Positions 4,760-46,246 of a stretch of 46,246 nt of DNA are shown piece after piece. Location of the stretch: contig CAZSQT010000014.1 in NCBI GenBank assembly GCA_964609295.1, positions 1-46,246 on the forward strand. Reading direction: 5' to 3'. Position 1 is the first letter of the stretch, and every line of letters starts with the position of its first letter. The notes under the pieces were generated by a model. It was not told the DNA's origin. It was given only the letters and a program-made list of their open reading frames with translations, and searched no databases. A program made the translations under genes and the position numbers. The DNA comes from an uncultured Gammaproteobacteria bacterium (GTDB lineage: Bacteria; Patescibacteriota; Microgenomatia; UBA12405).

Positions 4760-4766
4760 ATATAGA

Positions 4767-4772
4767 ATTATA
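4767..4772 (-). promoter_or_regulatory. Consensus -10 hexamer TATAAT (minus strand), 7 nt upstream of ATG 4759
   Basis: The reverse complement of attata at 4767-4772 is TATAAT. It lies in the 30-bp divergent intergenic region 4760-4789. The plus-strand candidates TATAAC (4769-4774) and TAAGTT (4776-4781) would serve gene 4790. Confidence 0.4.
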
Positions 4773-4789
4773 ACCTAAGTTTAATCAAC

Positions 4790-23831: not shown

Positions 23832-23833
23832 AA

Positions 23834-28694: not shown

Positions 28695-28702
28695 TTTTAA
28701 AT

Positions 28703-31986: not shown

Positions 31987-33496
31987 ATTCATCTCCAAAA
32001 ATATTTTTATAATTTTAATTATCCTTTTGGGACTTTTATCTACCCACCGATTACTCAGACCAGGAATTCATTCCATGGCCGACGAAATGCATGTTTTTCG
32101 CCTAGAACAATACCACCAATGCATTATGGATGGTCAAATTCCTTGTCGTTATGTCGCTGATGCCGGTTTTGGTTACGGTTATCCATTGTTCAATTTTTAT
32201 GCCCCTGGCTTTTACTCTATAGCTCAAATATTTCATTTAATTGGTTTTTCTCTGATCAACAGCCTCAAAATAGTTATTGTTTTAACAGCTATTAGTGGTG
32301 CTATTGGTATTTTTTATCTATCCAATTCCTTACTAGCTAGTGTTCTTTTTCTCTTTGCTCCATATCAAGCTGTCAATATTTTCGTTCGTGGTGCTTTTCC
32401 TGAATTTTTTGCCCTTAATTTAATTCCTTGGGTAATTTATTTTTTTAAAGAAAAAAAATATTTTTGGTCAACCATTTTTCTTTCTTTTGTTTTAATTTCT
32501 CATACTCTCACTAGTTTAACTTTACTAGTTTTTTTGATTCCTTATCTATTTATTTTTATCAAAGATTACAAAAAACAAATAATTTCACTCCTGACCAGTT
32601 TTGGATTATCTGCCTTTTTTACCCTACCTGCTTTTTTTGAAAAAAATATCACTACCGTTGAAACAATGACTCAAGGTTATTTTAATTTTATTAATCATTT
32701 TGCCACTCTCAATCAATTGTTCATATCTCGGTTTTGGGGTTATGGTGCTTCACTCTGGGGCCCTCAAGACGATATGGCTATCTCTATTGGTCTTATGCAA
32801 TGGCTAATTCCCTTATTGACACTTATATATCTTTTCAAAAATAAAAAAATAAATTTAAAAATAATTTTTTATTTAACATCTGCCTTATTTTTTATTTTTC
32901 TCACTCACAACAAATCAACCTTCATCTGGCAAAGTTTACCGTTTATGAAATACTTCCAATTTCCTTGGCGTTTTATTGGGATAGCTCTTATTCCATTGTC
33001 CTTACTAGCCGGAAAAATTAAATTAAACAAATTATTTCTCACTATTTTAATTTTTATTACTATTTGCTTAAATCTAAGTTACTTTAAAGAAGATATCTGG
33101 CACCAGCAATATGATTTTAACAAAGCTCGCTTAAGTGGTTTGGCAATAGGGGATTATTGGCCTAATTATGGGGAAGAATTACCTTCCAAATATATAGAAT
33201 CAAGAGGAATAGACAGACAAAGTAATAAATTATCCCTCTTTGTAGAAGTTAAAAATGAAAAAATGGAATTAATTTTACCCATAGTTTATTTTCCCGGCTG
33301 GAAAGTTTATGTCAACAATCAAGAAAAAGAATTTCAAATTGATCCTCTCTACGGACAAATAAAAATTAATCTGGAAACAGGACAAAACGATGTTGTTTTA
33401 AAATTTCACAATACCCCAATTAGAAACATTGCCAATCTTATCTCTTTTATTTCTCTTGTTTTTTTATTTTTTATAATAAAGTATGAAAAAAAATAG
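31979..33496 (+). CDS. Polytopic membrane protein, PTPS-related/YfhO-like putative GT-C glycosyltransferase (family B)
   Basis: 505 aa. Motifs: HSMADEMHVFRLEQYHQCIMDGQIPCRYVADAGFGYGYPLFNFYAPGFY. C-terminal YFPGWKVYVNNQEKEF...LKFHNTPIR followed by a terminal TM. The paralog is 9596-11317. Confidence 0.65.
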   Translation: MTKFISKNIFIILIILLGLLSTHRLLRPGIHSMADEMHVFRLEQYHQCIMDGQIPCRYVADAGFGYGYPLFNFYAPGFYSIAQIFHLIGFSLINSLKIVIVLTAISGAIGIFYLSNSLLASVLFLFAPYQAVNIFVRGAFPEFFALNLIPWVIYFFKEKKYFWSTIFLSFVLISHTLTSLTLLVFLIPYLFIFIKDYKKQIISLLTSFGLSAFFTLPAFFEKNITTVETMTQGYFNFINHFATLNQLFISRFWGYGASLWGPQDDMAISIGLMQWLIPLLTLIYLFKNKKINLKIIFYLTSALFFIFLTHNKSTFIWQSLPFMKYFQFPWRFIGIALIPLSLLAGKIKLNKLFLTILIFITICLNLSYFKEDIWHQQYDFNKARLSGLAIGDYWPNYGEELPSKYIESRGIDRQSNKLSLFVEVKNEKMELILPIVYFPGWKVYVNNQEKEFQIDPLYGQIKINLETGQNDVVLKFHNTPIRNIANLISFISLVFLFFIIKYEKK

Positions 33497-35072
33497 ATTT
33501 TTATTTATTTTTATTCTCTTAATTGCTCTATTTTTGAGATTTTACCAACTTAATCAATTTCCCCCTAGCCTAAATTGGGACGAAATTAGTCATGGTTACA
33601 ATGCTTACTCAATTTTAAAAACTGGACAAGATCAATGGGGGAATCAAGCTCCCATTTTTAATTTTAGAGCTTATGGAGATTATCCCACCACTCTCAATAT
33701 GTATTTGACCATTCCTTTCGTTTATTTTTTTGGACTAAATGAATGGTCAGTCAGATTACCCTCAGCCATTCTAGGTTTTGGCCTTGTTATCCTTGCTTTC
33801 TTTTTGACCCAAAAACTATTTGATAACAAAAAATTAAGTTATTTAGTGATGTTTCTTTGTGCTATTTCTCCCTGGACTCTCTTTACCTCTAGGGCTGTTT
33901 TTCAATCAACCGTAGCTCAATTTTTTATCCTTCTTGGTATTACTTTGTTTTTGTATAACAAAAAAAATCTCGGTGCCATAATGTGGGCCCTTTCCGCTTA
34001 TGCCTACCACAATACTCGTATTGTTGCTCCCTTACTTTTTGTTGTTTTTATCTTTATCTATTTTCCCAAATTTTGGAAAAACAAAAAAACACTTTTTGCT
34101 ATTTTTCTCTTTTCACTTCTAATTATTCCCAATATTTTAAATTTGTTTGTTCCTTCATCTCGAGCCAGGGGAAAGTGGGTCTTTATCATTAACCAAAATG
34201 CTATCAACATCATTGACGAAAATAGAAATAATTCCACCCTAACTCCCACGCTAAATCGGCTTGTCAACAACAAATATACCTATCTTGCCAGCAATATTAC
34301 CAAAAATTATACTGATTTTTTAAACCCCTATTTATTGTTTTTTAAAGGTTCAGGCCAATATCAATTTAATATTCCCAATCACGGAATTTTGTATTTTATT
34401 ACTCTCCCATTTTTTTATCTTGGTATTTTTAAAATTATTTTAAAAATTAGACACAAAAATAATTTATTTTTAATCTTGTGGTTTTTGATTGGCCTAATCC
34501 CAGCCGTAATTACTTTTGGCGATTTTGCTATCCTAAGAGGCTTCACTATTATCCCTATTCCTTTAATTTTTATTGCCGTTGGTCTGTTGAGCTTAAAAAA
34601 AATTAGCTTCTATACTGTCTTACTAATTATAATTATTCAAGCTTCACTATATATAAATAATTACTTTACCCAATACCCAAAACAATATTCACAAAGTTGG
34701 CAATATGGATACAAAGAAGTAGTCAATTATATTAAACAAAATGAATCTTCTTACGACCAGATTTTAATTACCAAAAAATACGGTGAACCCCATGAATTTA
34801 TTCTTTTTTATCTTCCCTACGAACCTCAACAATTACTCAACAATAATATTGTTTGGGATTTCCATGCTAATTGGTATTGGGTTGATCAAATTGATAAATA
34901 TCATTTTATTAATGATTGGGAAGTAAAAGAAAAAACAAAAAATATTACCGACAAAACATTGCTTATTACCTCGCCATTCAATTACAATAGTAATAAGAAC
35001 AAATTACTCAAAACTATTAATTTTAAAGACAATACCCCTGCCTTTGATATAGTCGAAATTTATGAAAACTAA
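33483..35072 (+). CDS. Polytopic GT-C membrane glycosyltransferase, PMT_2-like family A
   Basis: 529 aa. Motifs: NWDEISHGYNAYSILKTGQDQWGNQAPIFNFRAYGDYPTTLNMYLTIPF and SPWTLFTSRAVFQS. The ATG is embedded in the upstream TAT-GAA codons. Confidence 0.75.
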   Translation: MKKNRFLFIFILLIALFLRFYQLNQFPPSLNWDEISHGYNAYSILKTGQDQWGNQAPIFNFRAYGDYPTTLNMYLTIPFVYFFGLNEWSVRLPSAILGFGLVILAFFLTQKLFDNKKLSYLVMFLCAISPWTLFTSRAVFQSTVAQFFILLGITLFLYNKKNLGAIMWALSAYAYHNTRIVAPLLFVVFIFIYFPKFWKNKKTLFAIFLFSLLIIPNILNLFVPSSRARGKWVFIINQNAINIIDENRNNSTLTPTLNRLVNNKYTYLASNITKNYTDFLNPYLLFFKGSGQYQFNIPNHGILYFITLPFFYLGIFKIILKIRHKNNLFLILWFLIGLIPAVITFGDFAILRGFTIIPIPLIFIAVGLLSLKKISFYTVLLIIIIQASLYINNYFTQYPKQYSQSWQYGYKEVVNYIKQNESSYDQILITKKYGEPHEFILFYLPYEPQQLLNNNIVWDFHANWYWVDQIDKYHFINDWEVKEKTKNITDKTLLITSPFNYNSNKNKLLKTINFKDNTPAFDIVEIYEN

Positions 35073-36603
35073 AATAATTTTAATCACTATTTTTTTAATT
35101 GCTTTTTTTATCAGAATTTACAATATTCAATATCCTCCTTTACTTTGGGATGAAGCCTCACTCGGCTACAATGCTTACTCAATTTTAAAAACCGGTCAAG
35201 ATGAATATGGTAAAAGTTTTCCTCTAATTTTAAAATCATTTGGCGACTACAAACCAGGAGTTTATGCTTATTTAACTATTCCTTTTATCTCAATTTTTGG
35301 ATTAAATGAACTTTCTGTTCGCTTACCTTCAATTATTTTAGGCTCACTAATTCCTATTTTCCTATATCTCTTAATTATTGCTTTTGATAAGAAAAAAACT
35401 AAATTAGCCTTAATTGTAGCTCTAGTAACTGTCTTTAACCCATACAATATTCATTATTCAAAAGGGGCTTGGGAAACCAATATTCTCACTTTTCAACTAC
35501 TACTCGCTTCTTATTTTTTTATCAAAAAGAAATATCTACCTAGCGCCTTAATTTTTGGTCTCAGTCTTTATACCTATCAAGGAGCCAAAACTGCCTCTCT
35601 AATAGTTCTCTTAATTTTATTATTTTTACAATACAAAAATCCTCTCAATTTATTCAAAAAAGATTTTAAAACTTTAACTCTTCGTTTTTTTATTCCTCTG
35701 TTTATCTTGACTATCCCCTTACTTATCGGACTCTTGACTTCTAACGATAGCAATCGCCTTAAAGTTCTTAGTATTTTTTCTTATCCTCGTCAAACACAAG
35801 AAACAAATATTTTTCAAAATGACTTTACTTTTTATATTCAAAATATTTCCCATAGATATTTCAATCATTTTTCTCCAGAATTTCTTTTTACAAAAGGGGA
35901 CTGGCAAAACCCACGCCATAGTGCTCCTTACACTGGTGTTTTATTATTACCAAGTGTAATATTTCTTGTCATAGGTCTTTTCAAATCTTCTTACAAAAAA
36001 AGGGTTAATTTATTTTTTCTTCTAATTTTATTATTTGCCCCATTATCGGCTTCTTTTACTCGAGATTCTGTTCAAGCTACTCGGTCAATGTGGATGTCTC
36101 TCGGCTTGGTTTATTTTATTGGTTTTGGTATTAATATATTTTTAAAAAAGTTTTCTAATTTACTAATTTATTCACTCCTTATTGTTATTTATTTACTTTC
36201 TTTCATATATTATAGTGATCTCTATCACAACCATATGGTAAAAACTAATTCTGCCGATTGGCTTTCTGGCTACAAAGAAAGCATTACCTACTTAAATACA
36301 AAAAAATCTCAATACGAAAATCTTATTGTTACCGATTTTTATGGCCAACCATACATTTTTTATCTTTTTTATAGTCAATATCCACCTCTAGATTACCAAA
36401 AACAAGCCAATTTAATTAGCGATTCTGTTGATACTGGTAAAATTATACAAATAGACAACATAGAGTTTAAATCACCTGATTTTAATCAAATAAACAAACA
36501 AAAAGACACTCTAGCTATTTTCTCGTTTGATGAAGTCATTAGACAAAATTTAGATTTTAATCTCTTTAAAAAATTTGGCAATTTTTATATTTATGAAAAT
36601 TAA
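35062..36603 (+). CDS. Polytopic GT-C membrane glycosyltransferase, PMT_2-like family A
   Basis: 513 aa. Motifs: LWDEASLGYNAYSILKTGQDEYGKSFPLILKSFGDYKPGVYAYLTIPF (D30/E31 at nt 35149-35154), NIHYSKGAWETN, FLFTKGDWQNPRHSAP. Confidence 0.75.
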   Translation: MKTKIILITIFLIAFFIRIYNIQYPPLLWDEASLGYNAYSILKTGQDEYGKSFPLILKSFGDYKPGVYAYLTIPFISIFGLNELSVRLPSIILGSLIPIFLYLLIIAFDKKKTKLALIVALVTVFNPYNIHYSKGAWETNILTFQLLLASYFFIKKKYLPSALIFGLSLYTYQGAKTASLIVLLILLFLQYKNPLNLFKKDFKTLTLRFFIPLFILTIPLLIGLLTSNDSNRLKVLSIFSYPRQTQETNIFQNDFTFYIQNISHRYFNHFSPEFLFTKGDWQNPRHSAPYTGVLLLPSVIFLVIGLFKSSYKKRVNLFFLLILLFAPLSASFTRDSVQATRSMWMSLGLVYFIGFGINIFLKKFSNLLIYSLLIVIYLLSFIYYSDLYHNHMVKTNSADWLSGYKESITYLNTKKSQYENLIVTDFYGQPYIFYLFYSQYPPLDYQKQANLISDSVDTGKIIQIDNIEFKSPDFNQINKQKDTLAIFSFDEVIRQNLDFNLFKKFGNFYIYEN

Positions 36604-38161
36604 AAAAATATTTTTTATACTAATTTTAGCCTTAATACTCAGAAGTATTTTTATCAATACCACTCCCGCTCTCAATCCTGACGAAGCAGCCCTTGGCTAC
36701 AATGCTTATTCTATTATTAAAACCGGTAAAGATGAACATGGCCACTCTTTTCCTCTTCATCTAAAATCCTTTGGTGATTATAAACCCGCTTTTTATACCT
36801 ATCTTAGTATTCCAAGTATTGCCATTTTTGGACTTAATCCTTTTTCAGTTAGATTACCAAACATTATTCTTTCTGTTTTAGCAATTTATTACACTTATCT
36901 ACTAATTTATCTATTAACTAAAAACAAAAAACTAGCCCTATTAACCGCTCTAATTTTAAGTATCTCTCCTTGGCACATTCATTTTTCTCGTGGCGCTTGG
37001 GAATCATCCACTGCCTTATCTTTTATCATTATCGGCACCTATTATTTTTTTAAAGATAAAAAATATTTATTTATCCTTTTCTACGCCCTCTCTCTCTACA
37101 CTTACCATTCCGCCCGTCTTATTGCTCCACTATTAGCCCTAACTCTACTAGTCACCAATTACCATTTACTAATTACCAACTTAAAGAAATGGTTTTTACC
37201 ACTTCTTTTTGGTATTTTAATCTGCATTCCTGTCCTTTTTTCTTTTCTCAACAATGGTGGCACTGCTCGATTTTCTGGTGTCGGTATCACCGCCGACAAA
37301 GGCCCACTTAATAGAAGTGAGGAGCTTTTAAATCACCACAACAACGTTAAACTCATCAATAGAGTTATTCACAACAAAAGAGTCCTTTATATTCTTTCTT
37401 GGTCAGAAAAATATCTTTCTCATTTTAATTTTAATTTTCTTTTCAATGAAGGTGATGCCGTCCCACGCTCCAAAATACCCAATATGGGACTTTTGTATCT
37501 TATCGAATTACCTCTCTTAATATATGGCATTTACAAATCCCTCCAAAGTTCTAAAGTTCTAAAGCTCCAACGTTCCAACTCTCTATTTCTCCTCTGGCTT
37601 CTTATTGCTCCTATCGCCTCTAGTATAACCTTTCAAGCCCCCAGCGCCCTCCGGGCCCTTTTTATGATCATCCCTTTAACTTACTTTATCGCCCTTGGTA
37701 TTTATCATTTACCCAAAATTAGTCACTATGTGCTACTTCCCCTTTATATTTTTTATTTTGCCTTTTATCTCCATTCTTACTTTGTCCAATATGTCAAAAT
37801 CTATCCTTTTGCTTGGAATTATGGATTTTCGAAAGTTGTTCCCTATGTCCAAGACAATAAAGATAAATACGATCACATCTATTTCACCAACAAATACGAT
37901 CAACCATATATTTTATATCTCTTTTTTAGCCAATATGATCCAGTCAAAATTCAAAATCAAATAGAGTTAACTCCTCCCGATCAATTTGGATTTCAAACCG
38001 TCGATCACATTGATAACATTACTTTTTTTATTCCCCAACAATACGACAAAATTGAAAGCAATTCTTTGATTGTCGCTTCAGATGAAATCATTCCCTTATC
38101 TACCAAAAAAAACTTTATGTTCCCCGACGGTTCTTCGGGGTATAATATATATATCAAATGA
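36593..38161 (+). CDS. Polytopic GT-C membrane glycosyltransferase, PMT_2-like family A
   Basis: Motifs: NPDEAALGYNAYSIIKTGKDEHGHSFPLHLKSFGDYKPAFYTYLSIP, SPWHIHFSRGAWESS, FLFNEGDAVPRSKIP. The start is set at ATG 36593 (MKIKKIFF), the same TATGAAAA junction as at 35062. The track start at 36575 is a TTG extension. Confidence 0.75.
   Translation: MKIKKIFFILILALILRSIFINTTPALNPDEAALGYNAYSIIKTGKDEHGHSFPLHLKSFGDYKPAFYTYLSIPSIAIFGLNPFSVRLPNIILSVLAIYYTYLLIYLLTKNKKLALLTALILSISPWHIHFSRGAWESSTALSFIIIGTYYFFKDKKYLFILFYALSLYTYHSARLIAPLLALTLLVTNYHLLITNLKKWFLPLLFGILICIPVLFSFLNNGGTARFSGVGITADKGPLNRSEELLNHHNNVKLINRVIHNKRVLYILSWSEKYLSHFNFNFLFNEGDAVPRSKIPNMGLLYLIELPLLIYGIYKSLQSSKVLKLQRSNSLFLLWLLIAPIASSITFQAPSALRALFMIIPLTYFIALGIYHLPKISHYVLLPLYIFYFAFYLHSYFVQYVKIYPFAWNYGFSKVVPYVQDNKDKYDHIYFTNKYDQPYILYLFFSQYDPVKIQNQIELTPPDQFGFQTVDHIDNITFFIPQQYDKIESNSLIVASDEIIPLSTKKNFMFPDGSSGYNIYIK
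37543..37582 (+). repeat. Degenerate octanucleotide tandem array (ccaaagtt ctaaagtt ctaaagct ccaacgtt ccaactct) inside the family A GT-C gene
   Basis: Read directly. Consensus is C-Y-A-A-N-N-Y-T x5. It encodes SSKVLKLQRSNS. Confidence 0.7.
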
Positions 38162-38964
38162 AAAATAACAAAATAAAGCTCTCTATCGCTCTTGCTACTT
38201 ACAATGAAGAAAGTAATATCAAAAAATTTTTGGAAAATTTTTCTGATATCGGTGATGAAATTATTATTGTTGATGGTCAATCTAGCGACAATACTGTCAA
38301 AATTGCCCAAAAATACCCAAAAGTTAAAATCATATCAACCACCAACAAGCCAATGTTTCACTTAAACAAACAAATGGCCATTGATGCTTGTCAAGGTGAT
38401 TGGATTCTTCAAATGGATGCTGATGAGTTATTGACTCCTCAACTTAAAAAAGAAATAAAATCAATTGTTGGACAAAATCCCGAGGAAATAGAATATAACG
38501 GTTTTTGGATTAAAAGAAAAAATTTTTTCTTGGGATCTTTTTTAAAAAAAGGTGGTGTCTATCCTGATCCTACTATTCGTCTCTACAAAAATGGCAAAGG
38601 CCATTTACCTTGCCAAGATGTTCACGAACAAGCCCACATAGATGGTAAAATCGGCTGGCTCAAACACGATATGGAGCATTATGCCGACCCATCCTTTTCT
38701 CGATATCTACTTCGTGCCAATCGCTACACCACTCTTTTGGCCCAACAATTAAAAGAACAAAAAGTGCCTCTAAATTTTTCTTCTTTTTTTAAATATTACT
38801 TTCTTTTACCAAATTGGTGGTTTTTTAAAACATTTTTTAGACACCGTGGTTTTATGGACGGACTTCGCGGTTTTGTCTTTTCTTATTTTTCTGCCCTTCG
38901 TTTTCCTATTGCTTACACCAAATATTATGAATTAAAACAAAATATAACTCAAGGATGGGCATAA
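38158..38964 (+). CDS. GT2 glycosyltransferase (WaaE/KdtX-like subfamily)
   Basis: 268 aa. Motifs: LSIALATYNEESNI, IIIVDGQSSDNT, MDADEL, GLRGFVFSYFSALRFPIAYTKYYE. ATGA overlap with the upstream gene. Confidence 0.75.
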   Translation: MKNNKIKLSIALATYNEESNIKKFLENFSDIGDEIIIVDGQSSDNTVKIAQKYPKVKIISTTNKPMFHLNKQMAIDACQGDWILQMDADELLTPQLKKEIKSIVGQNPEEIEYNGFWIKRKNFFLGSFLKKGGVYPDPTIRLYKNGKGHLPCQDVHEQAHIDGKIGWLKHDMEHYADPSFSRYLLRANRYTTLLAQQLKEQKVPLNFSSFFKYYFLLPNWWFFKTFFRHRGFMDGLRGFVFSYFSALRFPIAYTKYYELKQNITQGWA

Positions 38965-38965
38965 T

Positions 38966-39988
38966 ATGAAAATAGGCGTTATCGGTTCACCCCTCCAAGA
39001 TGGCAATAAAATTCGTGGTGTTGGTTTCTACACCAAAAACCTTTTTGAAAATTTAAAAAATACTGACTTAATTACCAGTTACCAGTTACCAATTACCAAT
39101 TACGATCTCATCCACTATCCCTTTTTTGACCCCTTTTCTCCGACTTTAAAAATATTCAAAACTCCCACCATCGTTACTGTCCACGACCTTATTCCTCTTC
39201 AATTCAAAAAACATTTTCCAGTTGGTGTTAGAGGTATTATCAACTGGTATCGACAACTTTTTAATCTTCGCCGTGCCACAGCCATCATTACTGTCTCCAA
39301 TTACTCCAAAAAAATAATACATCAAATTACCAAAATACCTTTAGAAAAAATTCATGTCACTTACTTGGCTCCAGATAAATTTTGTAAACCAATTACTGAC
39401 AAAAAATTTCTCCAAAAAATTAAAGAAAAATACAAATTACCTTCAAAATTTGTCCTATATGTAGGGGATATCAATTGGAACAAAAACATTCCCTCGCTTG
39501 TTAAAATATGTCAAAAATTAAATTATCCTCTAGTTATTGTAGGCTCTAGTGCTGTCAAAAAAGATGTTCCCAATCATCCTTGGACACAAGATATCCTCTA
39601 CCTCCAATCAAAATCTAAAGATCTAACGCTCCAAGGTTCTAACACTCTAATATTCACCGGTTTCATCCCCGACGAAGAACTTCCTGCCATTTACTCTCTA
39701 GCCACTATCTATTGCCAACCATCTCACGCCGAAGGCTTTGGTCTCCCTCCTCTTCAAGCCATGGCCTGTGGCTGTCCTGTCATCTGCAATTTTCAAACTT
39801 CCTTAAAAGAATTATATGAAAAATACTCCCTTCCTTTTGATAAAGAAAGTTTCAAAAAATTATGGAACAATTCAAAACTCAGATCAAAATATTCTCAACT
39901 TGGCTTAAATTATTCTAAAAATTTTTCTTGGTCAAAAACTGCTCAAAAAACTCTTCAAATTTATGAAAAATATCAAAAAACAAAATAA
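38966..39988 (+). CDS. GT4 (GT-B fold) glycosyltransferase
   Basis: 340 aa. Motifs: TVHDLIPLQF, FVLYVGDINWNKN, FTGFIPDEELPAIY, HAEGFGLPPLQAMACGCPVICN. The gene contains a 7-nt tandem repeat at 39072-39103. Confidence 0.8.
   Translation: MKIGVIGSPLQDGNKIRGVGFYTKNLFENLKNTDLITSYQLPITNYDLIHYPFFDPFSPTLKIFKTPTIVTVHDLIPLQFKKHFPVGVRGIINWYRQLFNLRRATAIITVSNYSKKIIHQITKIPLEKIHVTYLAPDKFCKPITDKKFLQKIKEKYKLPSKFVLYVGDINWNKNIPSLVKICQKLNYPLVIVGSSAVKKDVPNHPWTQDILYLQSKSKDLTLQGSNTLIFTGFIPDEELPAIYSLATIYCQPSHAEGFGLPPLQAMACGCPVICNFQTSLKELYEKYSLPFDKESFKKLWNNSKLRSKYSQLGLNYSKNFSWSKTAQKTLQIYEKYQKTK
39072..39103 (+). repeat. Heptanucleotide tandem repeat (TTACCAG x2, TTACCAA x2, plus partial TTAC) inside the GT4 gene 38966-39988
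   Basis: Read directly: ttaccag ttaccag ttaccaa ttaccaa ttac, encoding ITSYQLPITNY. The unit length is not a multiple of 3. Confidence 0.85.
39615..39654 (+). repeat. Second copy of the degenerate octanucleotide array (ctaaagat ctaacgct ccaaggtt ctaacact ctaatatt) inside the GT4 gene
   Basis: Read directly. Nt 39614-39649 match 37550-37585 at 31 of 36 positions, in the same codon phase. It encodes SKDLTLQGSNTL. Confidence 0.65.
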
Positions 39989-40724
39989 TCACTTTTTATC
40001 TCTAATAGTTCCTGTCTACAAACAAGAAAAAACTATCAAAAAAGATATCTTAAATATCTTAAAAACTCTTTCTCAAATTCGTTACAATTATGAAGTTATT
40101 GTTGTTGTGGACGGTCTTTTTGTTGACACTTCTTATTTTATTTTAAAAAAAATAAAACAACCCAAACTCAAATTAGTTGCCCTAAAAAGAAATCATGGCA
40201 AGGGTTTCGCCATCAGAAAAGGTATGAGTCAAGCTAAAGGCGATTATATCGCTTTTATTGACGCCGGTATGGAGATTGACCCCAACGGTATTTCAATGAT
40301 TTTGGAACACATGGAATGGTATAACGCCGATATTATTGTCGGCTCCAAAAGACATCCGGCTTCACAAATATCTTATCCATTGGAAAGAAAAATTGTCAGT
40401 TTTTTTGCTCAAATTTACGCCAAATATTTTCTAGGGCTCAACATCACTGACACTCAAGCAGGCCTAAAAATATTCCGCAAAAAAATTCTCCAAAAAGTTT
40501 TACCAAAATTATTGGTCAAACAATATGCTTTTGATCTAGAAATTCTCTCGGTTGCTAATCGTTATGGTTTTAAAAGAATCTATGAAGCCCCCATCAAACT
40601 AAATTATAGTTTTGAAAGTTTAACTCATGCCAGTGGTCTCAAAATTTTATGGAAATCTTTAATTGACTCCCTGGCTGTTTTTTATCGATTAAAAATTCTT
40701 CGCTATTATGACCCCAAAAATTAA
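39963..40724 (+). CDS. GT2 glycosyltransferase, DPM1/GtrB-like polyprenyl-phosphate sugar synthase
   Basis: 253 aa. Motifs: LSLIVPVYKQEKTI, VVVDGLFVD, NHGKGFAIRKG, FIDAGMEID, IVGSKRH, ITDTQAGLKIF. Confidence 0.7.
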   Translation: MKNIKKQNNHFLSLIVPVYKQEKTIKKDILNILKTLSQIRYNYEVIVVVDGLFVDTSYFILKKIKQPKLKLVALKRNHGKGFAIRKGMSQAKGDYIAFIDAGMEIDPNGISMILEHMEWYNADIIVGSKRHPASQISYPLERKIVSFFAQIYAKYFLGLNITDTQAGLKIFRKKILQKVLPKLLVKQYAFDLEILSVANRYGFKRIYEAPIKLNYSFESLTHASGLKILWKSLIDSLAVFYRLKILRYYDPKN

Positions 40725-41667
40725 ATTTTCTATCATTATTCCTATTAGGATAGAAAATGATTATCTCAAAGAAACACTACAAAAATTAAAATTACAAAGC
40801 TTTAAAAATTTTGAAGTATTGGTAATTACCGATAAAATTAGCAAAAAATCTTCTCCTGCTTACAAAAGAAACCTTGGCGCAAAAATGGCAAAAGGCCAGT
40901 TTTTAGCTTTTATTGATGATGATTCTTATCCACACCGACACTGGCTTAAAAATGCCTCTAAAATTTTACAAAAATACAAAAATCTCGCTGCTGTTTGTGG
41001 CCCTTGTCTTACTCCACCCAAGGATAATATTTATCAAAAAGCTTCTGGTTTAGTCTGGAGTAGTCTACTTGGTAGTGGGGGAGCCGGTACCTACCGTAAC
41101 CAAATTAGTTCCGCTCGCTTTGTTGATGATTTTCCTTCAGTCAATCTCATTGTCAACAAAGAAGATTTTGTTAAGGTTAAAGGATTTGATACTCATCACT
41201 GGCCAGGTGAAGACACTATTCTTTGTCTCAATCTAACTAGTAAGCTCAATAAAAAAATCCTCTATCATCCATCAATTAGGGTGTATCATCATCGCCGTGA
41301 AGTTATCAAAAAACATCTTCAACAAATTACTCGTTATGCTCTTCATCGCGGTCTTTTTGCTCGAATTTATCCGCAAAATAGCCGTAAAATAGGATATTTT
41401 TTACCAAGCCTATTTTTTGTATATCTCATCACCCTACCTATTACCAAAATTTTTTGGCCCTTATATTTATATCTAATTCTCTTATTTGCTAATTTACTTA
41501 ATTATTTATTCACTTATCCATTTTATTTATCCCTACTCGCTACTATCACCATCCCCATAACCCATATATACTATGGAGTGTTATTTATTAAAGGCTATTT
41601 TTCAAAAAATCTAGATTTTAATCCCCACCATGTCAACAAAAAAACCGGCAAATACATCGGCGGTTAA
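40708..41667 (+). CDS. GT2 glycosyltransferase with a C-terminal membrane anchor (about 3 TM)
   Basis: 319 aa. Motifs: FSIIIPIRIEND, AYKRNLGAKMAKGQFLAFIDDDSYP, WPGEDTILCLNL. C-terminal hydrophobic IGYFLPSLFFVYLITLPI...LYLYLILLFANLL...ITHIYYGVLFI. Confidence 0.7.
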   Translation: MTPKIKFSIIIPIRIENDYLKETLQKLKLQSFKNFEVLVITDKISKKSSPAYKRNLGAKMAKGQFLAFIDDDSYPHRHWLKNASKILQKYKNLAAVCGPCLTPPKDNIYQKASGLVWSSLLGSGGAGTYRNQISSARFVDDFPSVNLIVNKEDFVKVKGFDTHHWPGEDTILCLNLTSKLNKKILYHPSIRVYHHRREVIKKHLQQITRYALHRGLFARIYPQNSRKIGYFLPSLFFVYLITLPITKIFWPLYLYLILLFANLLNYLFTYPFYLSLLATITIPITHIYYGVLFIKGYFSKNLDFNPHHVNKKTGKYIGG

Positions 41668-43039
41668 GATTGCTATTTCTTATCCTCCCTTAGTTTCCAA
41701 AAAAGGTCGTCCCTTTTTGTCCCAAAATCGCCAATTTCAATGGACTAATACCAAAAATATTATTTACCCTGTTGTCCCTGCTTCAGCTGCTACTCTTTTA
41801 AAATCAAAAGGTTATCAAGTTTTTTGGGATGATGCTATCGCCCAAAATCTTTCTTTTAATCAATGGTTTATTAGATTAAAAAAAGAAAAACCTGATTATA
41901 TCGCTATCGAAAGCAAAACACCTGTTATCAAAAAACATTGGCAAATAATTAAAAAAATTAAAAAAAATCTTCCGGAAACAAAAATTATTCTTATGGGAGA
42001 TCATGTTACTGCCCTACCACAAGAATCCTACAAAAATTGCCCTATTGATCACATTATTATTGGTGGCAATTATGATTTACTTCTCTTAGATTATATCTCT
42101 GGCAAAAAAAATAATCTTAGCGTCCAAAATTTACCCCAAATTGATCGTCAATTAACACAATGGCAATTGTATGCCTATCAAAATACTAATTTTAAATATC
42201 GCCCTGGTGCTTATACCATGTTTGGCCGAGATTGTTGGTGGGGGAGATGTACTTTCTGCTCCTGGACTACTCTTTTTCCCGGAAAATGTTACCAATCTTA
42301 TACTCCAAAACAAGCCTTCAATGAAGTAAAAAATCTAATAAAATTAGGTGCTAAAGAAATTTTTGATGATTCCGGTACTTTTCCAGTAGGTAATTGGCTT
42401 AAAGAATTTTGCCAACTTATCATAAAAAACAATCGGGCAACTGGCAAGCATATTAGATTTGGTTGTAATATGCGTTTTGGTGCCTTAAGTGAAAAAGATT
42501 TTAAACTAATGCATCAAGCTGGATTTCGTTTTATGCTTTTTGGTCTCGAATCAGCCAATCAAAAAACCTTAGACAAAATCAATAAAAATAATAAAGTAGA
42601 AAATATTATCCCCACCCTAAAACTTTGTAAAAAATATCACATTGATGCTCATCTGACTGTTATGGTTGGTTACCCTTGGGAAACAAAAAAAGAATTAGAC
42701 AAAACTATTAATTTTGTTCGTCAAATATTTAAACAAAATCTAGCTGCCAGCCTTCAAGCAACTATTATTATCCCTTATCCAGGAACACCACTCTTTAAAT
42801 ACTGCAAAAGAAAAAAACTTCTTTTAACCAAAAATTGGGATAAATACGATATGCGTCAAGCAATTATAAAAACCAAAAATCCTAAATATCTAAAAACTGC
42901 AGTTCAAAATTTATTTAAAACAATTATTACTCCTCGATATATTTTAGGAAAAATTTTCAATATTAGATCAGTTAGCGATATTAAGTTTTTATTTTTTTAC
43001 GCTATTAAATATTTAAAAAAATTAAATGATTTCCGTTAG
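41630..43039 (+). CDS. Radical SAM enzyme with an N-terminal cobalamin(B12)-binding-like domain (class B-like)
   Basis: 469 aa. Rossmann-like N-terminus DYIAIESKTPVIKKHWQIIKKIKKNLPETKIILMGDHVTALP. Cys triad GRDCWWGRCTFCSW at nt 42233-42259. Later FGLESANQKTLDKINK and MVGYPWET are typical of radical SAM TIM-barrel strands. Confidence 0.75.
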   Translation: MSTKKPANTSAVKIAISYPPLVSKKGRPFLSQNRQFQWTNTKNIIYPVVPASAATLLKSKGYQVFWDDAIAQNLSFNQWFIRLKKEKPDYIAIESKTPVIKKHWQIIKKIKKNLPETKIILMGDHVTALPQESYKNCPIDHIIIGGNYDLLLLDYISGKKNNLSVQNLPQIDRQLTQWQLYAYQNTNFKYRPGAYTMFGRDCWWGRCTFCSWTTLFPGKCYQSYTPKQAFNEVKNLIKLGAKEIFDDSGTFPVGNWLKEFCQLIIKNNRATGKHIRFGCNMRFGALSEKDFKLMHQAGFRFMLFGLESANQKTLDKINKNNKVENIIPTLKLCKKYHIDAHLTVMVGYPWETKKELDKTINFVRQIFKQNLAASLQATIIIPYPGTPLFKYCKRKKLLLTKNWDKYDMRQAIIKTKNPKYLKTAVQNLFKTIITPRYILGKIFNIRSVSDIKFLFFYAIKYLKKLNDFR

Positions 43040-44021
43040 TTTTATTATTCCTACCTTAAATGCCCAAAAAGTTTTGGGCAAATGTCTTCGCTCTATTGCC
43101 AAACAAAAAACAAAATTAAAATATGAAATTATAATCGCCGATGGTGGTTCAACTGACAAAACTATCTCTATTGCCAAAAAATTTAAGGCCAAAATAATAA
43201 AAAATCCATTAAAAACTGCTGAAGCCGGTAAAGCAGTTGGTGTTAAAAAGGCTAAAGGTCAATATATTTGCCTTATCGACTCTGACAATATTATCCCCAC
43301 CAACAACTGGCTAGAAAAAATGATTTTACCTTTTTCTGACAAAAAAATTATTGGTAGTGAACCAATATCTTTTACTTATCGAAAAAATGCTGGCCTTATC
43401 GAGCGTTATAGTGCTCTTATCGGTGCTAATGACCCCTATGCTTTTGTGACTGGGATTTATGATCGTCAAAATTTTATAAATTTTCGGTGGACAGATCTAA
43501 AATTAGAAACAAAAAATTTTAAAGATTATCTAAAAATAAAATTAGAAAAAAACAAAGCCATTCCTACTATCGGTGCCAATGGCACAATTTTTCGCAAATC
43601 ATTATTTAAAAATTTTAAATTAGATTATTTATTTGACATTGACTTATTAACTAATTTACTCATAACTAATTCGCCATTATATTTTGCCAAAGTTAAAGTT
43701 GGTATTATCCATACTTATTGCGAAAACAACATAAAAAAATTTATTAGAAAACAAAATAGGCGAATTGTCGATTATTATACTTATCAAAATCTAAGAACCT
43801 TCAATTGGACTACTACAAGCCCCACTAAATTTATTTTTTATACTATACTAATTTTTCCCCTTATTTATCACTCTTTTGTTGGTTTTATTCATAAACCAGA
43901 TACCGCTTGGTTTTTCCACTTACCCGCCTGCCTTATAACTCTTTATGTTTATCTCATCAATTTTGTCAAAAAAAAATTAAATATTATCAAACCCCTAAAT
44001 AGAGACAAATGGCAACAATAA
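43026..44021 (+). CDS. GT2 glycosyltransferase with C-terminal TM helices
   Basis: 331 aa. Motifs: VSFIIPTLNAQKVL, IIIADGGSTDKT, AGKAVGVKKAKGQYICLIDSDN. C-terminal hydrophobic FIFYTILIFPLIYHSFVGFI and FFHLPACLITLYVYLINFV. Confidence 0.7.
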   Translation: MISVSFIIPTLNAQKVLGKCLRSIAKQKTKLKYEIIIADGGSTDKTISIAKKFKAKIIKNPLKTAEAGKAVGVKKAKGQYICLIDSDNIIPTNNWLEKMILPFSDKKIIGSEPISFTYRKNAGLIERYSALIGANDPYAFVTGIYDRQNFINFRWTDLKLETKNFKDYLKIKLEKNKAIPTIGANGTIFRKSLFKNFKLDYLFDIDLLTNLLITNSPLYFAKVKVGIIHTYCENNIKKFIRKQNRRIVDYYTYQNLRTFNWTTTSPTKFIFYTILIFPLIYHSFVGFIHKPDTAWFFHLPACLITLYVYLINFVKKKLNIIKPLNRDKWQQ

Positions 44022-45103
44022 AAAAAACTATTTTAATGATTAGTCCTTTTTTTCATCCCAATATTGGTGGAGTAGAAACTCATCTCTCTGACTTGGTTAC
44101 AACATTATCCAAAAATCACAAAATTTTTGTTCATACTTATTCACCAATTACTACTCCCAATGTTTTGTATCGTAAATTTGAAAAACATAAAAATTTAGAA
44201 ATTCATCGTTATCCTTGGTTTGGCAAATCTTTGTTTCACAAATTAGAAAAATTTCCTTTGTTTGATTTTCTCTATCTCACCCCATATCTTTTTTTACGCA
44301 CTTTTATCTGGATGATATCCAATCACCAAAAAATTGAAATCATTCACTCACATGGCTTTAACGGTGCCTTTTGCGGTCTCTTGTTAAGTAAAATTTTCAA
44401 CAAAAAACACATCGTCAGTACTCATGCTATTTACGACAATATCACTACTTCTACTATTCTCAAATACACTCTAAATAATTCCAATCATATTTTATGTTTA
44501 TCCAAAGCTTCTGCCAAACAACTAATCAATTGGGGTATTGATCAAAACAAAATATCAGTTTACAAATATTGGATTGATTTAAATATTTTTAAACCAATCC
44601 AAAAAAAAACAACTAATTTTTCTGTCTTATTTGTCGGTCGTTTAATTGAAAAAAAAGGTATAAAAATACTAGTTAACACCGCCAAATTGTTACCCCAAAT
44701 TCAATTTGTTTTTATTGGAACTGGTCCACTTGGGGATTATCTAAAAAATCTAAAAATTAAAAACATTGTATTTTTGGGAAAAATAGAAAACAAAAAACTA
44801 CCAAAATTTTATGGTAAATACCATATTTTTTGTGCTCCATCTTTGTATGAAGAAGGTTATGGCAGAGTTGTTATGGAAGCAGTTGCTTGTGGTACTCCTG
44901 TCATCGCCAGCAATAGGGGAGGTCTGCCAGAGGCTCTAGACAATAATGTCGCCATTTTAATCAAACCAACTAATTCAACAACTCTCAAAAAAGCCATTTT
45001 AACAATGCAAAAAGATTATCAAAAATATCAAAAAAAATGTCGCCCCTATGCCCTTAAAAATTTTTCAACTAAAAATTTAAATCTAATTACCAAATATTAC
45101 TAA
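44009..45103 (+). CDS. GT4 (GT-B fold) glycosyltransferase
   Basis: 364 aa. Motifs: MISPFFHPNIGGVETH, FVGRLIEKKGI, YEEGYGRVVMEAVACGTPVIASNRGGLPEAL. Confidence 0.8.
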   Translation: MATIKKTILMISPFFHPNIGGVETHLSDLVTTLSKNHKIFVHTYSPITTPNVLYRKFEKHKNLEIHRYPWFGKSLFHKLEKFPLFDFLYLTPYLFLRTFIWMISNHQKIEIIHSHGFNGAFCGLLLSKIFNKKHIVSTHAIYDNITTSTILKYTLNNSNHILCLSKASAKQLINWGIDQNKISVYKYWIDLNIFKPIQKKTTNFSVLFVGRLIEKKGIKILVNTAKLLPQIQFVFIGTGPLGDYLKNLKIKNIVFLGKIENKKLPKFYGKYHIFCAPSLYEEGYGRVVMEAVACGTPVIASNRGGLPEALDNNVAILIKPTNSTTLKKAILTMQKDYQKYQKKCRPYALKNFSTKNLNLITKYY

Positions 45104-45104
45104 A

Positions 45105-45725
45105 TTATTTCTCAGCTTCACAATAAAAACTTAATTCTTTGTGTGAACTTAAATCTAATTTGTCCAAATTCGGCACCCTCCCTTTACCTATAGAACAAAT
45201 TTTTATATTTTTAAAACCACACTCTTTCAATAATTCCCTAAATGTTTTTTTGTTATACATCCACTTATGATCTCTTATAAAATATCTCGATAACTTTGTT
45301 AAAAAACTTTTTGGCTCTTTATCTTTATCAAAACCCCACCAAATTCTACAAAACTCATCTGCTCCCATTTCTTTATATTTTCCAATTAATTTATCAATAT
45401 CAGGCAAAACAATCCGTATTACTCCTCCTTTTTTTAAAACTCTTTTTGATTCCATTAAAATATTTTTTGCTTCCCATCTCTCAAAATGCTCCAAAACATG
45501 TGAACAATAAATATAATTTATAATGCTATCATCAACCGGCAATCTTTTTCTTATATCGACCAATTCAAATTTGGGCCATTTGGTCAAATATGATTTATCG
45601 ATAAGACCTAATTTAACAGCAAATTTTAATAAATTAAATTTATTTAAAAAAGGTAAAAGACCCCAATCATAATTAATCCAACCATTTATTCCACTTGGTC
45701 CACATCCTAGGTTTATTTTTTTCAT
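45105..45725 (-). CDS. Class I SAM-dependent methyltransferase (Methyltransf_11-like)
   Basis: 206 aa. Motifs: MKKINLGCGPSGINGW (motif I), YIYCSHVLEHFERWEAKNILMESKRVLKKGGVIRIVLPD. Confidence 0.75.
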   Translation of the reverse strand: MKKINLGCGPSGINGWINYDWGLLPFLNKFNLLKFAVKLGLIDKSYLTKWPKFELVDIRKRLPVDDSIINYIYCSHVLEHFERWEAKNILMESKRVLKKGGVIRIVLPDIDKLIGKYKEMGADEFCRIWWGFDKDKEPKSFLTKLSRYFIRDHKWMYNKKTFRELLKECGFKNIKICSIGKGRVPNLDKLDLSSHKELSFYCEAEK

Positions 45726-45745: not shown

Positions 45746-46246
45746 ATGAAAAAACTTTTAATTATAGCTAATAATAACATTGGTCAAGGTCAAAGTGGTG
45801 GAGATACCATTTTTTTGAATTTTATAAAATACTGGCAAAAAGATTTAAATATTACCGTCTTGGGTAGTCAAGAGACCAAAGATTTACTCAAAAGATATCA
45901 ACTGCAAAAAATTAAATTTATCAAAACTGATGACGAAACCAATCTTCCCTTACTCTTTCATCAAATCAGAAGAATTATTAAAGGTATTAAAAGCATCTAC
46001 AAACTACGAACTAAACACTATGATCTAATTTATACTGTTTCTGATTTTTATCCTGACTTAATCCCTGGACTCATCTACAAAGCTTACAAACACCAGAGTA
46101 AATTAATTTGTGGTTATTATCTTTTTGCCCCAAATCCTTTTGACTCCCAATCTCCATATATTCAAACCGATCAATTTTTTAAAGGTCTCTTTTATTACCT
46201 TTCTCAATTACCAAGCCGTTTGGCTGTCAATTTGTGGGCTGATATA
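45746..46246 (+). CDS. Probable GT4/GT-B glycosyltransferase, 5' part only (runs off the window); not in the supplied ORF track
   Basis: ATG at 45746, with the frame open for 167 codons to the window end. Translation MKKLLIIANNNIGQGQSGGDTIFLNFIKYWQKD...DLIYTVSDFYPDLIP resembles a GT-B N-terminal Rossmann domain. Confidence 0.5.
   Translation, partial: MKKLLIIANNNIGQGQSGGDTIFLNFIKYWQKDLNITVLGSQETKDLLKRYQLQKIKFIKTDDETNLPLLFHQIRRIIKGIKSIYKLRTKHYDLIYTVSDFYPDLIPGLIYKAYKHQSKLICGYYLFAPNPFDSQSPYIQTDQFFKGLFYYLSQLPSRLAVNLWADI

Follow-up and report, generated by a model that had tools for sequence, protein, structure and literature searches.

An uncharacterised radical SAM protein family encoded beside a membrane-anchored glycosyltransferase in glycan loci of Patescibacteria and other bacteria

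The gene examined here looks unremarkable in itself: it encodes a class B-type radical SAM (rSAM) protein, a known kind of enzyme, from an uncharacterised family. This conserved family is tied to a membrane GT2 glycosyltransferase in surface-glycan loci of Patescibacteria and other, mostly uncultured bacteria. The fold, motifs, conservation and synteny of the gene are the established part of this account. Beyond them, we propose that the soluble rSAM protein is the dedicated partner of the membrane GT2 encoded upstream in a locus for lipid-linked glycan assembly and that it remodels a hexose, a reading to which we give about even chances.

Sugar-tailoring rSAM enzymes are otherwise known almost solely from antibiotic and hopanoid pathways, and the envelopes of the hosts concerned are essentially uncharted chemically. 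The family could disclose a new sugar modification, and it could tell whether the class B branch that includes HpnJ truly uses cobalamin, a question that matters for how far reduced genomes depend on the cofactor. The GT2-rSAM pair is a compact two-gene target, with one homolog in the cultured Fundidesulfovibrio agrisoli SG106. A literature search found no paper specific to the rSAM family.

Reading frame, fold and cluster motif

The window, the whole stretch of DNA that was analysed (46,246 nt), contains the following features around the rSAM gene.

38158..39988, + strand: GT2 (268 aa) and GT4 (340 aa), part of the conserved block (Pfam, synteny)
39963..40724, + strand: small soluble GT2, 253 aa, polyprenyl-phosphate sugar synthase-like (ArnC / PpgS / PgfS; NCBIfam)
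40708..41667, + strand: partner membrane-anchored GT2, 319 aa (Pfam GT2 / Glyco_trans_2_3, TM segments, synteny)
41630..43039, + strand: rSAM gene, 469 aa, ATG start (ORF reading, Pfam, NCBIfam, AF2 model)
41666..42109, + strand: Rossmann-like (B12-binding-like) domain, residues ~13-160 (PF02310, AF2, hhalign, OxsB alignment)
42206..42799, + strand: radical SAM core, partial TIM barrel, residues ~193-390 (Pfam, HpnJ alignment, invariants, Foldseek)
42233..42259, + strand: putative [4Fe-4S] cluster motif C202-WWGR-C207-TF-C210, flanked by invariant R200 and W212 (direct reading)
42800..43036, + strand: C-terminal helical region, residues ~391-469 (AF2 helices 418-430, 435-443, 448-467)
43026..44021, + strand: downstream membrane-anchored GT2, 331 aa (Pfam GT2, 91.9 bits)
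44009..45103, + strand: GT4, 364 aa, same block (Pfam Glycos_transf_1, 113.5 bits; synteny)
45105..45725, - strand: class I SAM methyltransferase, 206 aa, convergent (Pfam Methyltransf_23/11)

The first-pass annotation had placed a class B rSAM gene at 41630-43039, overlapping the upstream GT2 by 38 nt and the downstream GT2 by 14 nt; the reading frame and both overlaps were confirmed. The frame has no other ATG, GTG or TTG start ahead of Met122, therefore the 38-nt overlap stands, and a GT2/rSAM overlap of 25-31 nt recurs in related Microgenomates loci. The two-domain architecture, an N-terminal Rossmann-like domain joined to a radical SAM barrel, was borne out by Pfam, NCBIfam, AF2, Foldseek and hhalign. 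Pfam Radical_SAM matched residues 199-363 at 67.5 bits (cut-off 29.5 bits), and the AF2 model reached a pLDDT of 83.8 and a pTM of 0.87. SAM-binding motifs were located in the core at F245-DDSG-T250 (GGE-type), G305-L-E-S308 (ribose motif) and V344-MVGYPWE-T352 (GxIxGxxE-type); across the family, DDSG (246-249), GLES (305-308) and VGYPWE (346-351) do not vary. The C-terminal helical region, which has conserved residues at D407, M408, F429, Y457 and K460, could in the modelled structure act as a substrate cap.

The codons at nt 42233-42259 (TGT TGG TGG GGG AGA TGT ACT TTC TGC) read C-W-W-G-R-C-T-F-C, which verifies the C-x4-C-x2-C spacing first reported from the DNA (C202-x4-C207-x2-C210). The pattern CW[WHY]G.C.FC is present in all 120 closest homologs (54-100% identity), ruling out a sequencing or frameshift artefact as the origin of the extra residue in the Cys loop. 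A scan of the whole protein found no second C..C..C motif, the canonical CxxxCxxC included, and the triad aligns with the CxxxCxxC of HpnJ, QCMT and TokK-type enzymes, which supports its assignment as the probable cluster site. Against the Cx4Cx2C motif of OxsB the alignment is gap-free (CWWG[KR]CTFC against CDYSRCTFC). Among genome loci, Cx4 occurs in 76 of 82 and Cx7 in five, and in the wider family the loop between the first two Cys takes the forms x3, x4, x7 and x9-10. Several homologs carry a LAGLIDADG intein inserted exactly ahead of the third Cys, at a type of site that inteins favour. Cys residues 202, 207, 210, 261 and 279 are invariant in the family. C279 is a generic core residue, since HpnJ and AprD4 also have it ("SCNAK" and "WCETR", respectively). 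An auxiliary Fe-S cluster was ruled out, as the N-terminal domain has no conserved Cys. The spacing had been called unusual, but it is not so for this class: Cx4Cx2C has been reported in GenD1 (PMC4340712), and the crystal structure of OxsB shows it binding the cluster (PMC9204698). It is real, but already known, and does not constitute a discovery.

The N-terminal domain and relation to characterised enzymes

Of the earlier proposal that the N-terminus is a B12-binding domain, the fold stands, with five beta-alpha units in the AF2 model, but the PF02310 match (residues 46-145, 25.7 bits, E 1.1e-5) is significant while lying under the gathering score of 32.1 bits. A precomputed PF02310 match exists in 43 of the 120 closest homologs. 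In OxsB, TsrM and TokK, cobalamin (Cbl) is contacted by the motif [G/A]-x-[S/T]-x-X after beta3, a Gly on beta4 and G-E at alpha5; the beta1-alpha1 loop, which is long, is a further contact feature (PMC9204698). The conserved elements of the rSAM protein are E94-S-K96-T97-P98 after beta3, G123-D-H on beta4 and G145-G-x-Y148-D149 before alpha5. Its beta1-alpha1 loop spans ~29 residues in the AF2 model and contains the conserved LSQNRQFQW (residues 30-38), which is specific to the family and absent from HpnJ. When aligned with OxsB, G182-x-S184-x-N186 falls on A92-I-E94-S-K96, the beta4 Gly on G123 and G-E on Y148-D149; the Cbl motifs are in part kept and in part exchanged for other invariant residues.

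The Cys loop of TokK touches Cbl through Arg204, while its Trp215 is sandwiched between Cbl and the cluster (PMC9204698). R200 (two residues before the first Cys) and W212 (two residues after the third) sit at these positions, as checked against TokK numbering, and both are invariant in the family, with Trp in 82 of 82 loci. An aromatic residue at the latter position is not exclusive to Cbl binders; AprD4 has Tyr there. AprD4 has the same fold as class B enzymes without binding cobalamin (PMC12931638). Cobalamin dependence of the rSAM enzyme is unproven, because the PF02310 match is below threshold and AprD4, the closest solved structure, binds none. No cobalamin uptake or salvage gene was seen in the window, which spans the glycosylation island only.

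Among NCBIfam models, HpnJ (TIGR03471) scored best, at 124.2 bits (E 6e-36) against a curated cut-off of 577.6 bits. The top models, HpnJ (124 bits), BchE (90 bits) and the ladderane enzyme (84 bits), are all non-methylases, and the methylase models PhpK, HpnR and QCMT scored 70, 63 and 54.5 bits. All 25 NCBIfam matches lie far under their cut-offs, which rejects membership in any curated family. MiaB/RimO enzymes carry an N-terminal UPF0004 domain, whose three Cys serve a second cluster, and a TRAM domain at the C-terminus; this family (TIGR00089) was rejected on its score (37.5 vs 251 bits) and on the missing conserved N-terminal Cys. The AprD4 family (NF033070) was likewise set aside, with 39.5 vs 500 bits, a place under ten other class-B-type models and a different motif. 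Foldseek matched the AF2 model to AprD4, MgmA, TsrM and OxsB, and the top full-length match was AprD4 (E 1.7e-17, TM 0.71/0.74, 477 columns), a rank that may stem from similar size and not common function. When the PDB was searched by sequence with the family profile, QCMT/MgmA came first (38.9 bits) and AprD4 second (37.8 bits). A plasmid collection yielded no family member, just distant class-B enzymes (HpnJ, BchE) at no more than 31% identity.

HpnJ, a hopanoid-associated rSAM protein, is believed to turn BHT-glucosamine into a cyclitol ether by contracting its glucosamine ring, a chemistry that has itself been deduced solely from genetics. The likeness to HpnJ covers both domains by hhalign (99.7%, E 8e-27, residues 44-400), with 31% identity over the core (199-390), and extends to 'x-T-x-T-P' following beta3, to the 'R-x-C' and 'C-x-W' that flank the cluster motif on its N- and C-terminal sides, respectively, and to a GT2-to-rSAM gene order like that of hpnI and hpnJ. 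However, HpnJ has the canonical cluster motif CRSRCTFC (Cx3), the rSAM protein scores one fifth of the HpnJ cut-off, and the partner GT2 matches HpnI at E 0.16, not beyond the generic GT2 fold; orthology to HpnI/HpnJ was rejected on these grounds. The window holds no HpnK-type deacetylase, SHC-type or other hopanoid gene, and a comparison locus (L085) has hpnI, hpnJ and hpnK together.

OxsB (PDB 5UL2-4) performs a cobalamin-dependent radical SAM ring contraction in oxetanocin A biosynthesis. It shares the Cx4Cx2C spacing and a profile match over the Cbl domain and core (E 4e-4), but is a protein of 744 aa with additional N- and C-terminal domains and a soluble nucleotide substrate, and has S184 and N186 in the Cbl motif where the rSAM protein has E94 and K96. 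AprD4 (PDB 6FD2), the radical SAM 1,2-diol dehydratase of apramycin biosynthesis, is similar in size, two-domain layout and use of a sugar-ring substrate, whereas its identity is 12%, its motif is CX3CX3C (CPYPCRFYC) and it serves an antibiotic pathway with a soluble substrate. QCMT / MgmA (PDB 9CCB) is a B12-dependent glutamine C-methyltransferase acting on methyl-coenzyme M reductase; the best PDB match by sequence, it has the 'R-G-C...CTFC' context in common but differs in its canonical Cx3 (CPGNC) and protein substrate, and aligns over the core alone. [quoted passage not shown] By description, GenD1 has Cx4Cx2C (PMC4340712), class B architecture and a sugar substrate in common with the rSAM protein, but all three enzymes belong to soluble secondary-metabolite pathways. 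The likeness to the calditol synthase Cds of Sulfolobus acidocaldarius is one of reaction logic, a lipid-attached hexose being, as proposed, converted to a cyclopentitol after glycosylation (PMC13459092, PMC9092360), but Cds is confined to acidophilic archaea.

Conserved glycosyltransferase neighbourhood

Both flanking genes encode membrane-anchored GT2 enzymes, as proposed at the outset, with C-terminal hydrophobic segments, according to Pfam and TM segments. In the partner GT2, D42, D70-D72, E168-D169 and Q206-x-x-R209-Y210 are invariant (a D,D,D,QxxR[W/Y]-type signature) and the hydrophobic segments span residues 228-263 and 276-294; its AF2 model (pLDDT 91.7) has BcsA and hyaluronan synthase as top Foldseek matches. 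A homolog lies immediately upstream of rSAM in 66 of 76 loci, which span different phyla and include that of Fundidesulfovibrio agrisoli. The downstream GT2 (TM segments 269-288 and 296-314) has a homolog no more than 3 kb 3' of rSAM in 29 of 57 loci. The small GT2 matched ArnC, PgfS and PpgS near full length (49, 48 and 43 bits), and an ArnC/PpgS-like GT2 is found upstream of the GT2-rSAM pair in 37 of 66 loci.

The gene order GT2-GT4-GT2-GT2-rSAM-GT2-GT4 forms a conserved Microgenomates block (L001, L003, L005-L024 and others) in which homologs of the class I methyltransferase recur; one relative, P0048 (700 aa), has the rSAM C-terminus fused to such a domain, and P0215 is a distant GT2-rSAM fusion. 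Non-Microgenomates loci contain a Wzx flippase in 30 of 48 cases and an NDP-sugar epimerase/dehydratase in 20 of 48. Within 7 kb of rSAM in 82 loci, the recurrent neighbours were GT2, GT4, Wzx, NDP-sugar epimerase/dehydratase, SPASM radical SAMs and class I methyltransferase, and no lipid-synthesis or precursor-peptide gene recurred. One cluster-less family member also adjoins NDP-sugar genes (the informative contig among three examined). The window contains glycosylation genes only. The conserved synteny upholds the initial view of the gene as integral to its operon, here a glycan locus.

Candidate reactions and host range

What the rSAM enzyme acts on, whether that substrate is bound to the membrane, which reaction takes place and whether cobalamin takes part are matters of inference. 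C202, C207 and C210 would hold a [4Fe-4S] cluster that cleaves SAM reductively to a 5'-deoxyadenosyl radical, and the radical would take a hydrogen from a hexose freshly attached by the partner GT2 to a membrane-bound acceptor, which would be a membrane lipid or else a glycan intermediate linked to polyprenyl phosphate. Resolution of the sugar radical would end the reaction. The modified unit would be lengthened by the downstream GT2/GT4 enzymes, exported via a Wzx-type flippase and used by the many GT-C enzymes of the island. By analogy with ring contraction by HpnJ and calditol synthase, and with OxsB and AprD4, the most likely chemistry would be a non-methylating rearrangement or elimination on the sugar ring, with C-methylation as the next option, although sequence does not discriminate among rearrangement, dehydration and methylation. 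Published proposals place the action of HpnJ and calditol synthase after the hexose has been joined to the lipid (PMC13459092, PMC9092360); GT2-rSAM synteny does not separate action on the GT2 product from action on the nucleotide-sugar donor or the lipid. The GT2-rSAM pair might even be a widespread, hitherto unrecognised two-enzyme module that glycosylates a membrane-bound acceptor and then converts the hexose to a carbocycle (cyclitol) or rearranged pseudo-sugar, which we regard as quite unlikely. If true, bacteria would have in their surface glycans an equivalent of the HpnI/HpnJ cyclitol ether and of archaeal calditol, and their surface glycoconjugates would resist acid or glycosidase.

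The first-pass annotation had cited GenK/Fom3-type methylation as common class B chemistry; it is not favoured here because the profiles nearest to this protein, those of HpnJ, BchE and the ladderane enzyme, describe non-methylases. A sugar C-methylase, in which the 5'-dA radical would take H from a sugar carbon and methylcobalamin in the N-terminal domain would supply a methyl radical for a C-branched sugar in the glycan, is in our judgement somewhat doubtful. The PF02310 matches of this protein and its homologs, the placement of R200 and W212, the Cx4Cx2C motif of the sugar C-methylase GenD1 and the fact that the majority of characterised class B enzymes methylate (PMC9204698) all point towards it. 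Against it stand the methylase models scoring under the non-methylase ones and the partial Cbl motifs, in which the Ser of G-x-S-x-X is an invariant E94 and 'GE' is Y148-D149. To our knowledge, Patescibacteria, which make up most hosts, are not expected to make cobalamin, and we count this too against methylation. The nearest structural neighbour, AprD4, binds no cobalamin, a further point against it. An alternative that we consider unlikely is a cobalamin-independent, AprD4-like enzyme whose Rossmann-like domain would do no more than help to bind the substrate, a sugar that would undergo redox-neutral 1,2-diol dehydration, or a related elimination or epimerisation, to a deoxy or keto sugar. 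Such an enzyme would suit reduced host genomes, and the ranks of AprD4 in the Foldseek and PDB sequence searches agree with it, as does the finding that the best PDB match of HpnJ itself is AprD4 (74 bits); AprD4 and ArsL homologs lie within the class B similarity network and bind no Cbl (PMC12931638). The Foldseek rank may mirror size rather than function, however, the AprD4 model of NCBIfam fits poorly, and AprD4 shows CX3CX3C and 'FGC', not 'R-x-C'.

Highly improbable, in our view, is a non-sugar target, namely the lipid carrier, a membrane lipid chain (cf. Tes, GrsA/B and the ladderane enzyme) or a protein or peptide, with the GT2 link reflecting a shared pathway. Numerous radical SAM enzymes act on lipid tails (PMC13459092), and the lipid-biosynthesis model TIGR04072 (rSAM_ladder_B12) runs through the two domains as a single match (83.8 bits, residues 44-397), but it is sugar-handling genes that recur in the 82 loci and adjoin even the cluster-less family member.

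At least 566 species genomes carry the rSAM family. Most of them are Patescibacteria; others are sulfate reducers, the cultured F. agrisoli and MAGs labelled Nitrospirota and Dehalococcoidia. An archaeal distribution was not taken at face value: a locus labelled "Methanoperedens" (L025) has full Microgenomates synteny, and the label of L071, Archaeoglobus, was not accepted for a contig of 36% GC. Many contigs labelled "uncultured Gammaproteobacteria" or "Bdellovibrionales" resemble Patescibacteria.

The radical SAM gene and its GT2 neighbours

A radical SAM protein of 469 aa, referred to here as rSAM, is encoded between two GT2 genes:

40708-41667, partner GT2
41630-43039, + strand, rSAM
43026-44021, downstream GT2

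The rSAM start lies 38 nt ahead of the partner GT2 stop, and the downstream GT2 begins inside rSAM, sharing its last 14 nt. The ORF coordinates thus confirmed both overlaps noted in the first-pass annotation; the 38-nt overlap is real because rSAM has no other start codon before Met122, and overlaps of 25-31 nt were also seen in related loci. Pfam assigned GT2 to both neighbours, and C-terminal hydrophobic segments are present in both and absent from rSAM, in agreement with the earlier description of the flanking genes as membrane-anchored GT2s.

Within rSAM, Pfam placed a Radical_SAM domain at residues 199-363 (67.5 bits) and a B12-binding domain at residues 46-145 (25.7 bits, E 1.1e-5), the latter significant, yet under its gathering score of 32.1 bits. 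The SAM-binding motifs DDSG (246-249), GLES (305-308) and VGYPWE (346-351) are invariant in the rSAM family. A confident AF2 model (pLDDT 83.8, pTM 0.87) displayed a five-stranded Rossmann-like domain, a barrel and a helical C-terminus. As far as its sequence goes, rSAM is shown to be a radical SAM enzyme with intact cluster and SAM sites and a Rossmann-like accessory domain.

The very confident AF2 model of the partner GT2 (pLDDT 91.7) combines a GT-A domain with an interface helix and, at the C-terminus, three helices. Its invariant residues D42, D70-D71-D72, E168-D169 and Q206-x-x-R209-Y210 resemble the D,D,D,Q(R)xxRW signature shared by GT2 synthases of the membrane and by lipid glycosyltransferases, and Foldseek ranked BcsA and hyaluronan synthases best, followed by TarP, AvpGT and PcManGT. 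The gene order GT2-rSAM matches hpnI-hpnJ, although BLASTP detected no HpnI likeness in the partner GT2 itself.

Spacing of the cluster cysteines

Direct reading of nt 42233-42259 gave C-W-W-G-R-C-T-F-C, that is, C202-x4-C207-x2-C210, and the protein contains no other C..C..C motif, a canonical CxxxCxxC included. In alignments with known enzymes, this triad matched the cluster motifs of QCMT/MgmA (CPGNCTFC, with one gap), HpnJ (CRSRCTFC) and OxsB (CDYSRCTFC, without a gap). The pattern CW[WHY]G.C.FC was found in all 120 of the 120 closest homologs (54-100% identity), and 82 loci from species genomes included 76 with Cx4 and 5 with Cx7. A wider count drew on the best 150 of the 50%-identity cluster representatives: of the 74 full-length proteins (400-560 aa) in this set, 48 have x3 between C1 and C2, 11 have x4, 4 have x7 and 2 have x9-10. 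The loop therefore varies in length, and x4 is one of its forms. In the OxsB crystal structure, the radical SAM cluster is bound by Cx4Cx2C (PMC9204698), and the same spacing has been reported for GenD1 (PMC4340712). The spacing is real, conserved and already documented, not new. The first-pass annotation had thus read the motif correctly and its interpretation was right in outline, but its view of the spacing as unusual did not stand, being known from OxsB and GenD1.

Five homologs outside the window (P0121, P0122, P0124, P0133 and P0135) carry a LAGLIDADG intein inserted right after the F that precedes the third Cys. The intein spans ~420 aa in P0121; the junctions read ...GCTF/CVPGNTLI...LAVKN/CSWTTLFP, and splicing would restore CTF/CSWTTLFP. 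Given this insertion point, the cluster ligand coincides with the +1 residue of the extein, and the intein position is consistent with a functionally critical third Cys. In five other full-length homologs (P0136, P0147, P0149, P0152 and P0155; loci L086-L089), which are 30-37% identical, none of the three cluster Cys is retained, e.g. RDSDWGQSSLGS. P0152 lies next to a PQ-loop/SWEET-like protein amid NDP-sugar genes (RmlA-like, RmlD-like and NeuB), and its locus lacks the partner GT2. These cluster-less homologs may be pseudo-enzymes or sugar-binding proteins.

Relatives, cofactor and candidate chemistry

rSAM belongs to no curated family, as its best NCBIfam models all scored under their cut-offs.

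Table. Best NCBIfam models for rSAM (score / cut-off, bits)
HpnJ: 124 / 577.6
BchE: 90 / 481.35
Ladderane-associated lipid enzyme: 84 / 360
PhpK: 70 / 600
HpnR: 63 / 650
AprD4: 39.5 / 500

A family profile built from 38 members aligned with Mycetohabitans HpnJ over both domains (residues 44-400 / 31-395, probability 99.7%, E 8e-27). Foldseek with the rSAM model returned AprD4 first over the full length (E 1.7e-17, TM 0.71/0.74), followed by MgmA, TsrM, OxsB, MiaB, CysS and TokK. We infer that the nearest relatives of rSAM are three sugar-ring enzymes, namely HpnJ by sequence, OxsB by motif and AprD4 by structure.

The evidence on cobalamin is mixed. In its favour are the PF02310 match, though under the gathering score at 25.7 bits, a long beta1-alpha1 loop like those of OxsB, TsrM and TokK, a Gly on beta4 (G123), and the invariant R200 and W212, which occupy the positions of TokK Arg204 and Trp215 (numbering checked on the TokK chain). 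These TokK residues touch cobalamin or stack between cobalamin and the cluster (PMC9204698). Against it, or neutral, the Ser of the OxsB G-x-S-x-X motif aligns with invariant E94, the OxsB "lower-face" residue with invariant K96 and "GE" with Y148-D149, and AprD4, the closest solved structure, has the same architecture with no cobalamin bound (PMC12931638). AprD4 is also the best PDB match of HpnJ, an enzyme that is not known to use cobalamin. Therefore, a class-B architecture is taken as established for rSAM, which may or may not depend on cobalamin.

We suggest that rSAM would abstract a hydrogen from a hexose after its transfer by the partner GT2 to a membrane-bound acceptor. Since HpnJ, OxsB and AprD4 are sugar-ring enzymes and none is a methylase, we tentatively favour rearrangement of, or elimination from, the sugar ring by analogy. 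As precedents, HpnJ and calditol synthase are proposed to contract a hexose ring by radical chemistry once the sugar has been joined to a lipid (PMC13459092, PMC9092360). C-methylation comes second and is rather unlikely, and a non-sugar substrate is the least likely reading, which we consider improbable. The interest of this uncharacterised, widely distributed GT2-rSAM module lies in its chemistry and cofactor use rather than in its Cys spacing.

Conserved neighbourhood and distribution

The 46-kb window (29% G+C) is almost entirely a glycosylation island. It encodes roughly twelve GT2, three GT4 and a class I methyltransferase, together with 14 or more membrane proteins of the GT-C type (PMT/PMT_2, YfhO, GT87).

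Table. Further features of the window
1838-6980, glycosylation-island stretch
6977-8386, large ORF without Pfam match
8386-9576, large ORF without Pfam match
9596-11317, glycosylation-island stretch
11290-12726, Wzx-like flippase
12705-14339, large ORF without Pfam match
19051-25462, glycosylation-island stretch
23226-23831, large ORF without Pfam match
25459-26691, large ORF without Pfam match
27126-38161, tandem of seven GT-C-type membrane proteins of ~500-560 aa each (PMT/PMT_2/YfhO matches)
39963-40724, ArnC/PpgS-like small GT2
45747-46246, ORF MKKLLIIANNNIGQGQSGGDTIF..., running off the window end

The last ORF, which reads like a putative glycosyltransferase N-terminus, is unfinished, so the locus extends past the window.

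The block GT2-GT4-GT2-GT2-rSAM-GT2-GT4 also occurs in Shapirobacteria and Woesebacteria contigs. The most constant companion of rSAM is the partner GT2, a homolog of which immediately precedes it in the same orientation in 66 of the 76 loci with enough sequence. The small GT2 is upstream in 37/66, and a downstream GT2 homolog is found within 3 kb in 29/57. Outside the Microgenomates, 30/48 loci have a Wzx flippase nearby and 20/48 an NDP-sugar epimerase/dehydratase; more GT2s recur there as well. These counts show that rSAM is tightly coupled genetically to a membrane GT2 across phyla, in loci for assembly and flipping of lipid-linked glycans.

Two fusions were observed: P0048 (L003 10001-12103, 700 aa) joins rSAM to a C-terminal class I SAM methyltransferase, and P0215 (1383 aa) joins a GT2 domain to a more distant B12-type radical SAM domain. 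In two related Shapirobacteria loci (L001 11460-21470 and L003 12100-22000), the block is followed by three genes for SPASM radical SAM proteins and by another two or three for B12-domain radical SAM proteins with canonical Cx3, interleaved with GT2/GT4, giving up to seven radical SAM genes per glycan locus. As far as the window reaches, these additional genes are absent from it.

A scan of one genome per species yielded at least 600 pattern matches, of which at least 566 were confirmed. The family thus reaches beyond Shapirobacteria and Woesebacteria: among the matches listed, those at 47-50% identity include a cultured bacterium, Fundidesulfovibrio agrisoli SG106, with its homolog at L050 10001-11473, as well as MAGs that carry the labels Nitrospirota, Dehalococcoidia, Acidobacteriota and archaea. 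Some of the archaeal labels are probably mis-binned. Many public MAG contig labels look wrong (L007, L009, L025, L028, L071 and others): the complete gene order of the Microgenomates, at 55-70% identity, is present on contigs labelled "uncultured Gammaproteobacteria", "Bdellovibrionales" or "Candidatus Methanoperedens", and "Archaeoglobus sp. UBA234" has 36% G+C at its rSAM locus.
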